A stretch of DNA of 4,528 nt from a virus (Duplodnaviria > Heunggongvirae > Uroviricota > Caudoviricetes). The DNA lies in IMG/VR virus record IMGVR_UViG_2734482537_000011. One strand, written 5' to 3'. Position 1 is the first letter of the stretch. Each line of letters starts with the position of its first letter. The notes beneath the pieces are model-generated. The model searched no databases. It was not told the origin of the DNA and worked only from the letters and a program-made list of their open reading frames with translations. The position numbers and the translations under genes are program-made. Positions 1 through 4,528 of this stretch are shown in pieces.

Positions 1-41
1 GCTTTGAACTCTTTAGAGTAACGTTGGGTTTTTCTGCTCAT
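1..41 (-). CDS. IS3-family transposase OrfA, 5' end only (MSRKTQRYSKEFK...), runs off the window
   Basis: Reverse complement of 1-41 translates as M S R K T Q R Y S K E F K from an ATG with a well-spaced AGGAG Shine-Dalgarno. The N-terminal pattern is characteristic of IS3-family OrfA helix-turn-helix proteins. Confidence 0.55.
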   Translation of the reverse strand, partial: MSRKTQRYSKEFK

Positions 42-105
42 TATTAGCTCCTTCTGATGCCATTCTATTTCAGGAAGGAGTGTCCGTTAAACTCAGGCTA
101 CCTCA
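1..105 (-). mobile_element. Terminal ~105 bp of an IS3-family insertion sequence (end plus start of OrfA); the element continues past the window start. Boundary at 105 is approximate.
   Basis: Minus-strand ATG at 41 preceded by AGGAG (48-52, 6-nt spacer) opens an ORF reading MSRKTQRYSKEFK..., matching the IS3-family OrfA N-terminal pattern (M-x-K/R...YS-x-EFK). Reading the minus strand from position 105 gives 5'-TGAGGTAGCCTGAGTTTAACGGACAC..., which starts with the 5'-TG typical of IS3-family termini. The ATG lies about 64 bp inside this putative end, a typical IS3 spacing. Confidence 0.45.
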
Positions 106-2469: not shown

Positions 2470-3156
2470 ATGACCCCAATAAACATATTTATGACAGTTG
2501 CTGATTTCAAACGGCCCAAATTGGAGCTCCCAAACGGGGCAAACAAACTACTACTGCACTCTTGCTGTGCTCCATGTTCCGGTGAGGTGATGGAGGCGCT
2601 TCAGGCCTCGGGAATCGACTACACCATCTTTTTCTACAACCCGAACATTCATCCTCAGAAAGAGTATTTAATTCGTAAGGATGAGAATATTCGCTTTGCT
2701 GAACAACACGGCGTGCCGTTTATTGATGCTGATTACGACACAGACAACTGGTTTGAACGAGCCAAAGGAATGGAATGGGAGCCCGAACGAGGGATCCGTT
2801 GCACCATGTGTTTTGACATGCGTTTTGAGCGGACAGCGCTGTACGCCGCTGAAAATGGTTTCAGTGTGATCAGCAGTTCACTGGGCATTTCACGCTGGAA
2901 AAATATGCAGCAGGTTAACGACTGTGGGCGGCGAGCCGTCGCGCATTATCCGGGCATGGTGTACTGGGATTATAACTGGCGCAAGCAGGGCGGCTCGTCC
3001 CGTATGATTGAAATCAGCAAGCGCGAAAAATTCTATCAGCAGGAATATTGTGGCTGTGTGTATTCTCTGCGCGATACCAATCTACACCGCAAATCTCAGG
3101 GACGCCCTCTTATCAAAATTGGTCAACTCCACTACGGTAAAGAAGAGAAGGAGTGA
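2470..3156 (+). CDS. queH: Epoxyqueuosine reductase QueH homologue (DUF208); alternative start at ATG 2491
   Basis: N-terminal [11 protein letters not shown] is the hallmark cysteine motif of DUF208/QueH; further Cys pairs at RCTMC and YCGC fit Fe-S cluster ligands. Neither ATG 2470 nor 2491 has an obvious Shine-Dalgarno, so the start is uncertain. Confidence 0.8.
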
Positions 3157-3175: not shown

Positions 3176-3205
3176 GATTGATTTCATATTGGCGAGGTAA
3201 GTAGA
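3176..3205 (+). promoter_or_regulatory. Candidate sigma70 promoter of the hok/mok mRNA (-35 TTGATT, 18-bp spacer, -10 TAGAAT)
   Basis: TTGATT at 3176-3181 and TAGAAT at 3200-3205. The predicted start near 3212 precedes GCGGGTGCTTGAGGCTATCTGC, which resembles the 5' end of plasmid R1 hok mRNA as recalled (GGCGCUUGAGGCUUUCUGCC). Confidence 0.35.
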
Positions 3206-3269
3206 ATGACTGCGGGTGCTTGAGGCTATCTGCTTCAGGCATGAACACCAAAAGGCAGATAGAGAAAAG

Positions 3270-3335
3270 CCCCAGTTAACATTACGCGTCCGGCAAGACG
3301 CTTAACATTAATCTGAGGCCAATTTCATGCTTTGC
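3270..3335 (-). ncRNA. sok: Sok-like antisense RNA (coordinates approximate; promoter on the - strand at about 3342-3370)
   Basis: On the minus strand: -35 TTGCCT (+ strand 3365-3370), 17-bp spacer, -10 TAACCT (+ strand 3342-3347), placed as in R1 hok/sok where the Sok promoter lies inside the mok start region. The element TAAGAGGCTA (+ strand TAGCCTCTTA, 3346-3355) appears conserved with R1 as recalled. The 3' end was not identified. Confidence 0.35.
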
Positions 3336-3539
3336 ACATGTAGGTTAGCCTCTTACATGCCGAAAGGCAAGGAGAAGCAGGCTATGAAGCAGCAAAAGGC
3401 GATGTTAATCGCCCTGATCGTCATCTGTTTAACCGTCATAGTGACGGCACTGGTAACGAGGAAAGACCTCTGTGAGGTACGAATCCGAACCGGCCAGACG
3501 GAGGTCGCTGTCTTCGTAGACTACGAATCCAGGAAGTAA
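3327..3539 (+). CDS. mok: Mok-like reading frame (N-terminally extended, in frame with hok), 70 aa
   Basis: ATG 3327 in frame with hok gives MLCTCRLASYMPKGKEKQA-MKQQK.., parallel to E. coli MokC (MLNTCR...KEKRA-MKQHK..) as recalled. Confidence 0.5.
   Translation: MLCTCRLASYMPKGKEKQAMKQQKAMLIALIVICLTVIVTALVTRKDLCEVRIRTGQTEVAVFVDYESRK
3384..3539 (+). CDS. hok: Hok/Gef family type I toxin, 51 aa
   Basis: MKQQKAMLIALIVICLTVIVTALVTRKDLCEVRIRTGQTEVAVFVDYESRK is near-identical over most of its length to E. coli HokD/HokC as recalled, including the transmembrane segment and conserved Cys. AGGAG at 3370-3374 lies 9 nt upstream of ATG 3384. Confidence 0.88.
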   Translation: MKQQKAMLIALIVICLTVIVTALVTRKDLCEVRIRTGQTEVAVFVDYESRK

Positions 3540-3616
3540 GAGTGACCGGGCGGGGAGCTGATCCCATCCCCGCCCACCTCTGATGTGTCAGGCATCCTCA
3601 ACGCACCCGCACTTAA

Positions 3617-3659
3617 CCCGCCCATCGCTGTGATCTCTCAGCGTTTCGGCGGGTTTTTT
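3617..3659 (+). terminator. Rho-independent terminator of the hok mRNA
   Basis: CCCGCC (3617-3622) pairs with GGCGGG (3648-3653), with an inner CGCTG/CAGCG stem, followed by TTTTTT (3654-3659) and further T-rich sequence. Confidence 0.6.
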
Positions 3660-3679
3660 GTTGTTTATTTCCGGTGAAT

Positions 3680-3707
3680 TTGATTCGCGCACCTTCGCAG
3701 ATAGAAT
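3680..3707 (+). promoter_or_regulatory. Candidate sigma70 promoter (-35 TTGATT, 16-bp spacer, -10 TAGAAT) upstream of the 95-aa ORF
   Basis: TTGATT at 3680-3685 and TAGAAT at 3702-3707, located just after the hok terminator and about 80 bp before ATG 3789. Same hexamers as the hok promoter candidate. Confidence 0.3.
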
Positions 3708-3788
3708 CGACTCACTTAAGTAGCGCGCAGGGAGAAGAGGGATGGACCCCGAACAGGGGAGAGCTATTTATCTGGAAGGATTCTGAAG

Positions 3789-4076
3789 ATGAAAATCGAA
3801 GAATTGCGTGAAATTTTTAGTGAAAATGGCCTCTATGCTGTGCGCGTTGAGAATGGAGCGATTGTCAGCCATTGCCGCATTAGATGTTTGCAATCTCAAC
3901 AAAGGAAGAGCGGTGCTGTGTTATTTTATTTTTGTAATGGACTTCTGACGGACGGTTTTATTTTGCGTGAGGACGAATTTGTCACATCATTACGGGTTTT
4001 GAAAGAGATTGGTTTTAAGGCTGGTTTTCTGCTTTTGCTGAAGAATAAACTCATCTACAATCTTGAGCAGGATTGA
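3789..4076 (+). CDS. Hypothetical protein, 95 aa, AT-rich orphan gene
   Basis: ATG 3789 with GGAAGGA at 3776-3782. Intact ORF with no recognisable motif. Composition is visibly more AT-rich than the flanking genes, with several T-runs. Confidence 0.45.
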   Translation: MKIEELREIFSENGLYAVRVENGAIVSHCRIRCLQSQQRKSGAVLFYFCNGLLTDGFILREDEFVTSLRVLKEIGFKAGFLLLLKNKLIYNLEQD

Positions 4077-4114
4077 ACTCCTGCTGTGTAACACCGTGCC
4101 ACCGGAGAAAGCCG

Positions 4115-4468
4115 ATGGCACATATACAACTGGTCAAACAAACCTCTTCCGGATTACTTCTCCCGGCGACGCCGGAGAGTTGCGATTTTCTGCATCAAAT
4201 CAAAATAGGTGAGTGGATACACGCAGACTTTAAGCGTGTGTGTAACTACGCATTCCACAAGCGTTTTTTCAAACTCCTGCAACTGGGTTTCGATTACTGG
4301 ACTCCGGTCGGTGGGGCGATCACGCCTCGCGAACGAAAACTGGTGTCCGGTTTCGTTGATTACCTGTGTGAATCAGTAGGCCGGGAACATACGCCAGCTC
4401 TGAGCGAAGCCGCAGAGCAATTGAGGTGTACTGGCAATAGCGGACACTACCATTTGTTCTTTTTTTAA
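4115..4468 (+). CDS. DUF1367-like lambdoid nin-region protein (start ATG 4115, not the TTG at 4073); possibly truncated or frameshifted at its 3' end
   Basis: GGAG at 4104-4107 lies 7 nt upstream of ATG 4115 (MAHIQLVKQTSSGLLLPATPE..). The segment FHKRFFKLLQLGFDYWTPVGGAITPRERKL matches my recollection of the conserved core of DUF1367 phage proteins. The ORF ends at a T7 tract while frame 1 stays open to the window end. Confidence 0.5.
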   Translation: MAHIQLVKQTSSGLLLPATPESCDFLHQIKIGEWIHADFKRVCNYAFHKRFFKLLQLGFDYWTPVGGAITPRERKLVSGFVDYLCESVGREHTPALSEAAEQLRCTGNSGHYHLFFF

Positions 4469-4528
4469 GCAGCCATCTGATGATATTTTTCCCTGAAGGC
4501 TGCCGGGGAGATATTCCCCAGACGAGAG

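Follow-up and report, generated by a model that had tools for sequence, protein, structure and literature searches.

A rem-type gene between hok and a truncated DUF1367 gene

The window analysed here, a 4,528-nucleotide stretch of viral DNA from IMG/VR, holds a 4.3-kb prophage fragment lying between two copies of the insertion sequence IS600 (IS3 family). The end of one copy (1-105, minus strand) forms the left boundary of the fragment, and the end of the second (4422-4528, minus strand) forms the right boundary. Toward the right end, on the plus strand, are a hokD-type toxin gene (3384-3539), its downstream neighbour, an ORF encoding 95 amino acids (3789-4076) that we identify below as rem, and the 5' part of a DUF1367 (irsA-like) gene (4115-4421). 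The last of these matches PF07105 over profile positions 1-102 of 198 (E = 1e-46) and is cut by IS600 at 4422. A sok match at 3214-3389 was the only one returned by an Rfam search at E ≤ 1, which placed no RNA family in the leader of the 95-aa ORF. The positions given in the original prediction for a promoter-like site, a Shine-Dalgarno sequence, the 95-aa ORF and a 14-codon upstream ORF were all confirmed.

The hok mRNA has an intrinsic terminator at 3615-3659 (plus strand; outer stem AACCCGCC/GGCGGGUU, U-run at 3654-3659) with a ΔG of -24.8 kcal/mol and z = -4.3, which ends ~20 nt upstream of the -35 element of rem. The window lineage carries an insertion of ~23 nt in the terminator loop that forms a nested hairpin (CGCUG...CAGCG), where other loci have the plain AACCCGCTTCGGCGGGTTTTT.

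The ORF encodes a Rem-family protein

The product of the ORF is identical to database protein P0001, which comes from Shigella sonnei and other Enterobacteriaceae (~1000 contigs), stands for 82 member sequences and carries a precomputed assignment to Pfam family PF27490, named "Rem". The window protein also matched PHROG 340 (E = 6e-20), and in BLASTP its residues 1-80 are 68% identical to Rem of the E. coli K-12 prophage Qin (E = 2e-34). Homologues are annotated as rem in phage records, and K-12-like copies are named "protein Rem" in RefSeq. Of 5426 complete E. coli genomes, 3042 (56%) carry rem-like DNA. A profile search of 1.84 billion representative proteins recovered only 56 relatives; the distant ones, of 56-73 aa, share a core of the form G.(I/V)L(I/V)Y..G...GF.LR.DEFVTSL...AG(L/F). 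As far as G79/F80, the window protein retains every invariant or near-invariant column of the Rem core itself, GLY.V.VENG ... DGF.LR.DEFVTSL..LKE...KAGF.

Pairwise dN/dS values among rem genes are 0.12-0.35, indicating that rem is a real gene under purifying selection. The ORF had been described as an orphan in which no motif could be recognized, a description that the family matches, the similarity to K-12 Rem and the presence of rem-like DNA in over half of E. coli genomes contradict; nor is it a spurious ORF lacking conservation in related prophages, given the Rem family and its dN/dS values. We conclude that the ORF is probably rem, the small antirepressor gene of Rac/Qin-like lambdoid prophages that carry a non-cleavable repressor of the DicA family. 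The window gene is a catalogued gene and not a new one, a Rem-family antirepressor present as a derived frameshift allele in a decaying prophage. This identification removes a false orphan-gene lead, and the "hypothetical protein" label that the window allele bears in RefSeq can be improved.

Low GC content is a trait of rem

The ORF was noted for being more AT-rich than its neighbours, and a window-based GC calculation bore out this compositional break: GC content is 39.6% in the ORF and 49.0% in the window as a whole, just 0.7% of the 288-nt windows are equally AT-rich, and the minimum lies over the ORF. However, the seven homologous rem loci that we checked, including the same allele in L001, a near-identical intact prophage, all have 38-42% GC within prophages of 44-51% GC. 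Low GC is thus a family trait that does not point to local acquisition, and many loci have the hok-rem-DUF1367 order, so the idea that the ORF was acquired separately finds no support. The boundaries of the rem cassette are mosaic, with a varied upstream context and either DUF1367 or a ydfU-type gene downstream. A recent, separate acquisition at the window locus is not indicated.

The rem promoter is conserved across unrelated upstream contexts

Just past the hok terminator is a sigma-70-type promoter (3680-3707, plus strand) with a -35 element TTGATT (3680-3685), a 16-nt spacer and a -10 element TAGAAT (3702-3707). A consensus scan also recovered this TTGATT-N16-TAGAAT site, a match that by itself is at chance level (2 sites vs 1.0 ± 1.0 in shuffles). 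Its support comes from a comparison of 44 distinct sequences upstream of rem. The -10 element is TAGAAT in 42 of these and TAAAAT in one, and is missing only from a rearranged locus (L019); its first base lies 85-89 nt upstream of the rem ATG. Upstream of the -10 element, TTGnnn is found in 43/43 sequences at a spacing of 16 bp, or of 18 bp in the K-12 class. The DNA upstream of the -10 element otherwise falls into at least 7 unrelated contexts, so the fixed spacing of the -10 and TTG elements argues well, on comparative grounds, that the sigma-70 promoter is real, and the proposal that the ORF has its own promoter after the hok terminator is upheld. We infer that rem transcription starts near 3714.

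A promoter-like site upstream of hok (3178-3207) has the same hexamers as the rem promoter, TTGATT and TAGAAT, with a spacer of 18 rather than 16 nt. This site may be the promoter of the hok mRNA, and the hexamers it has in common with the rem promoter may be a coincidence.

Matches to a LexA box (CTGT-N8-ACAG, at most one mismatch) occur in the window only at 684 and 1579, which is the chance level, and none lies within 3600-3800. The signal that induces rem is thus not the SOS response acting through a canonical site. A literature search for the rem transcription start or for its inducing signal returned nothing. The conserved leader is the natural candidate for the site at which an inducing signal acts on rem.

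The leader has an invariant core and a variable upstream ORF

The 5' leader of rem contains a 29-nt core (3721-3749, plus strand; TAGCGCGCAGGGAGAAGAGGGATGGACCC) that holds a GGGAG Shine-Dalgarno sequence and the start of an upstream ORF. This core is near-invariant across lineages whose rem coding sequences have diverged to a dS of 0.3-1.2. The upstream ORF spans 14 codons in the window (MDPEQGRAIYLEGF; 3742-3786, plus strand) and ends with a TGA (3784-3786) located 2 nt before the rem ATG. A second Shine-Dalgarno sequence, GGAAGGA (3774-3780, plus strand), lies 8 nt before the rem ATG at 3789 and is kept in the upstream alignment.

The ATG and GGGAG of the upstream ORF are kept in 43/43 leaders, but the ORF can be as short as 3 codons or longer than 26; versions of 3, 4, 8, 12, 14, 15 or 22 codons occur, as do in-frame fusions to rem. 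The encoded peptides include MVP, MEP, MDPE, MDPSGERY, MDPKQGRVIYPE, the 14-15-codon forms, frame-shifted 22-codon forms and the fusions. A leader peptide should be conserved in sequence and in frame, whereas we counted at least seven peptide/frame versions among the 43 leaders. Because the start is kept but the frame and the peptide are not, the upstream ORF is unlikely to be a peptide-specific leader, contrary to what had been suggested for it; translational coupling of the upstream ORF to rem is possible.

We also looked for RNA structure in the leader. A small hairpin at 3747-3759 (plus strand; CCCC-GAACA-GGGG) has four pairs kept in 19-21 of 21 sequences, and one of them (columns 39-46) is U-G in place of C-G in 10/21; the hairpin shows little covariation and is tentative. 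The leader as a single sequence folds with z = -1.8, and its consensus fold has an energy of -12.7 kcal/mol with one compensatory pair. The predicted duplex between the DicF sRNA and the rem leader is no more stable than the shuffle mean.

In IMG/VR (loci L097-L213; e.g. L099, L134 and L140), this promoter-leader cassette, TAGCGCGCAGGGA.AAGA.GGATGG, stands nearly unchanged before small ORFs of three types: the long Rem form (82-87 aa), a 57-aa type that shares the first ~23 residues (...LIPDDHVILSIEAFIEYLERLGFKVVRE) and a divergent 55-aa type (MNDKELIAALSVPGNYEV...). In the few short-type loci with enough flanking sequence, there is no close DicA homologue, and the 57-aa and 55-aa ORFs may therefore be alternative antirepressor alleles for other types of repressor. 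The cassette combines the -10 element TAGAAT, the invariant 29-nt core with the upstream-ORF start, the small hairpin and the second Shine-Dalgarno sequence. We speculate, with considerable reserve, that it could be an input device for DicA-type prophages, which SOS does not induce, sensing a cellular signal after transcription and setting the output of the antirepressor.

A one-nucleotide deletion gave the window allele its 95-aa length

In the window allele (3789-4076, plus strand), residues 1-80 form the conserved Rem core and residues 81-95 (LLLLKNKLIYNLEQD) stem from reading on out of frame. In an alignment of eight loci, the frameshift maps to a T-run (4025-4028, plus strand): the window and L001, its twin, both show four T, where the other six loci, all with other alleles, have one more base. 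The coding sequence of one of these, L007, is that of the window plus a single extra T; its product is 86 aa long and ends in ...KAGFSAFAEE, and its TAA stop corresponds in the DNA alignment to 4046-4048 of the window (plus strand), the ancestral, canonical-frame stop. The 95-aa length thus results from a 1-nt deletion in the T-run.

Canonical Rem proteins are 82-87 aa long with the tail SAF(E/A/S)(D/E/G)(E/D), and the window protein has neither this length nor this tail. The canonical short tail is present in 32 of 34 distinct proteins (95 loci), and LLLLKNKLIYNLEQD is present only in the other two, 95-aa variants that together make up one lineage. AlphaFold2 assigns a pLDDT below 50 to residues 79-95 of the window protein, so the new tail is predicted to be disordered. 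No invariant residue of the wider family is found beyond G79, and distant relatives have variable tails or none; the conserved core (residues 1-80) of the window allele is thus intact. The window coding sequence has no further disruptions. The hydrophobic frameshifted tail could nevertheless destabilize or inactivate the protein.

A related tail appears in two 92-aa K-12-like proteins, P0044 and P0045 (compare L003, 4652-4903), which end in ...KNKLIYNLARG; P0045 stands for 102 member sequences. Judging from the K-12 sequence, this peptide would need a different 1-nt deletion in K-12 DNA, which implies a second, independent event that apparently leads into the same alternative frame as in the window. 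This second deletion suggests that the Rem tail has been lost or altered repeatedly. That the same ...KNKLIYNL... tail arose twice might point to selection for a tamed antirepressor in domesticated prophages, a corollary that we hold to be weaker than the reading of the cassette as an input device.

The frameshift also bears on how rem relates to the next gene. The stop of the window allele (4074-4076) lies 38 nt before the ATG of the DUF1367 gene at 4115, and this nearness had been taken to suggest that the two genes are expressed together. The nearness is itself a product of the 1-nt deletion, the ancestral stop being the TAA at 4046-4048. Co-expression of rem with the DUF1367 gene is plausible by analogy, because an antirepressor-irsA operon has been reported for Gifsy prophages (PMC3121763) and the Gifsy-1 irsA homologue has 53% identity to the intact DUF1367 gene.

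The stretch from the end of rem to the next gene holds a conserved hairpin, AGCAGGA-TTGAAC-TCCTGCT (4066-4085, plus strand), that has no U-run and that contains the frameshifted rem stop in its loop. Three of its pairs show compensatory changes, its covariation score was reached by 3 of 500 shuffles, and slid controls scored lower. The hairpin could be a processing or stability element. The Shine-Dalgarno sequence and ATG that follow it (GGAGAAAGCCGATG) are conserved regardless of which gene comes next.

rem is linked to DicA-family repressors in a freely reassorting manner

Among the loci with a canonical rem, 69 have 7 kb or more of flanking sequence on the upstream side. All 69 have a DicA-family repressor of 135 aa on the opposite strand, 3-10 kb upstream, with a dicC-like gene adjoining it. 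The repressor of the intact prophage L001 is likewise a DicA-like protein of 135 aa and is 62% identical to K-12 DicA. The window itself stops at IS600, short of the repressor, and its having one depends on L023 being of the same lineage; L023 is 100% identical to the window in all aligned (unmasked) segments and has an intact 135-aa DicA-like ORF just past the left IS600. Part of the ydaV (DnaC-like) gene of the window is masked by 250 N (1220-1469), where L001 and L023 both have 314 nt, so the masking did not preserve length.

Each type of Rem (K-12-like, PPompW-like and window-like) occurs with several DicA immunity types, including the K-12 DicA type, the L001 type, the L007 type and others. 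These mixed pairings indicate that the antirepressor and repressor modules reassort freely. No strict match of Rem allele type to DicA immunity type was seen among loci L001-L213. Free pairing would fit a Rem target in conserved parts of the repressor, namely its linker and C-terminal part. That rem is always linked to DicA-family repressors, yet its alleles are not tied to immunity types, gives context to the findings made with K-12 Rem (PMC10448788).

In L023, further copies of IS600 flank the DicA-like immunity region and interrupt both early operons, so derepression would have little to act on. The repressor-antirepressor pair probably survives in the window lineage with little left to regulate, and rem in the source genome is most likely a remnant.

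Comparison with K-12 Rem, the 86-aa alleles and the Gifsy antirepressors

The best-studied relative of the window gene is K-12 Qin rem (b1561). Ectopic K-12 Rem raised expression of a dicBp-lacZ fusion 165-fold, inhibited growth and caused filamentation that depended on DicB and DicF (Ragunathan et al. 2023, PMC10448788). These effects vanish in strains without qin or without both dicB and dicF (PMC10448788), which indicates that Rem acts as an antirepressor through the DicA repressor circuit. Direct binding of Rem to DicA in K-12 was deduced from genetics, and K-12 Rem is the only Rem for which relief of DicA repression has been demonstrated experimentally (PMC10448788).

K-12 rem and the window rem have in common the -10 hexamer, the leader core, a position just after hokD and a partner repressor of the same kind, a 135-aa DicA-family protein (62% identical). 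They differ in several respects. K-12 Rem has 83 aa and the window protein, with its frameshifted tail, has 95; the window protein also has a 4-residue insertion in a loop (residues 35-38). The downstream gene is ydfU and the upstream ORF has 3 codons in K-12, as opposed to DUF1367/irsA and 14 codons in the window. Finally, the promoters differ in their -35 context and in the spacer, which is 16 nt long in the window, and the window prophage is fragmented by IS600.

The closest relatives are the 86-aa Rem alleles of Rac-like and PPompW-like prophages, such as P0003, 'rem: prophage antirepressor' in MN652886 and those of the PPompW phages and mEp460_ev081. P0003 is identical to the window protein over residues 1-80, and its DNA differs by one T. 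These prophages and the window lineage have the same gene order, hok - rem - DUF1367 - DUF1364 - DUF1133(Q), and the window differs from them only by the 1-nt deletion with its new tail and by the ~23-nt insertion in the hok terminator loop.

A third comparison is to GfoA, GftA and GfhA of the prophages Gifsy-1/2/3, small antirepressors of a non-cleavable repressor that are encoded outside the immunity region (Lemire et al. 2011, PMC3121763). These proteins bind the repressor and release it from DNA, and they are produced from a LexA-controlled operon, dinI - antirepressor - irsA, that follows a terminator-like palindrome (PMC3121763). The Gifsy antirepressors and the window rem occupy the same slot, following a terminator and immediately preceding an irsA/DUF1367 homologue. 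The irsA homologue of Gifsy-1 shares 53% identity with the window's DUF1367 gene in its intact form, and a match at E = 9e-13 relates the Gifsy repressor GfoR to the DicA-like one. Unlike the Gifsy genes, the window rem has no dinI in front of it and no LexA box. A published link between Rem and Gifsy went through an intermediate sequence at 33% identity (PMC10448788). We found no detectable similarity between the Rem alignment and Gifsy-1 GfoA (hhalign probability 0.3%, E = 0.22), and a tblastn search with a distant Rem relative returned no Gifsy record; having found no homology to GfoA by hhalign, we set aside membership of Rem in the Gifsy sequence family. Rem works like a Gifsy antirepressor in an equal position, but its input signal differs. 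Comparison thus defines the rem promoter and leader, and places rem in the same pre-irsA slot as the Gifsy antirepressors, yet with no LexA box.

Taken with the results above, these comparisons suggest how the window copy would work. Transcription would start at the gene's own sigma-70 promoter (3680-3707), just past the hok terminator, produce a leader of ~75 nt and perhaps run on into the DUF1367/irsA gene. Rem would then inactivate the DicA-like repressor encoded 5-6 kb upstream, and the early promoters of the prophage would be derepressed. Loss of one T at 4025-4028 exchanged the 6-residue SAFAEE for a 15-residue hydrophobic tail while leaving core residues 1-80 intact, and with its host prophage in pieces through IS600, the circuit is probably vestigial in the source genome.

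Alternative explanations for the locus

The view taken initially was that the ORF is an orphan, an AT-rich moron acquired separately with its own promoter and active in toxicity or phage exclusion, outside prophage regulation. The low GC of the ORF, its possession of a promoter and the behaviour of rem, promoter and leader as a mosaic cassette with varied flanks all fit this view, as does the inhibition of growth by overexpressed K-12 Rem (PMC10448788). However, low GC is common to the seven homologous loci checked, the toxicity of K-12 Rem is gone without qin or without both dicB and dicF, and rem is tightly linked to DicA-family repressors. PADLOC found no match to an anti-phage defence model for the ORF, its 86-aa form or the genes next to it. 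Together with membership in the Rem family, the similarity to K-12 Rem and the occurrence in 3042/5426 genomes, these findings have already largely refuted the view, and we consider it very improbable. A different proposal concerns control: the 14-codon upstream ORF would be a leader peptide whose amino-acid sequence senses a signal, giving attenuation-like regulation of rem. The retention of its ATG and GGGAG in every leader is as this proposal would have it, and the commonest classes stop at -2 or as a TGATG over the rem ATG, which would allow translational coupling. Peptide and frame vary among the leaders, though, the consensus RNA fold is weak, and K-12 Rem, working from its native ribosome-binding site, has an upstream ORF of only 3 codons. 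We therefore regard sensing by the peptide as unlikely.

A more substantial alternative is that the gene is rem by descent but was inactivated by the 1-nt deletion, and is now decaying DNA without present function in an IS600-bounded fragment. The frameshift replaced the tail found in 32 of 34 distinct proteins, three or more IS600 copies break up the prophage and the gene that follows rem is truncated; moreover, the second deletion, in P0044 and P0045, fits repeated loss of an antirepressor that is toxic when expressed (PMC10448788). On the other hand, the deletion falls one residue past the last family-conserved position, in a tail that distant relatives vary or lack, and the promoter, leader and Shine-Dalgarno sequence are all intact. 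The allele is also widespread (82 member sequences and ~1000 contigs for P0001), with a coding sequence that is otherwise undisrupted. We consider this alternative a real possibility that falls somewhat short of probable. It agrees with the identification of the gene as an allele of rem, the antirepressor gene of DicA-type prophages, which is the reading we favour.

Cargo genes upstream of hok

In the prophage early region, between the replication genes and hok, the window carries a gene for QueH, an epoxyqueuosine reductase (2470-3156; PF02677, E = 2e-65), which looks like a metabolic moron. In related loci, this position is taken by other cargo: L002 has a restriction endonuclease, L007 a RES-domain protein and PPompW Paa/AdfO.
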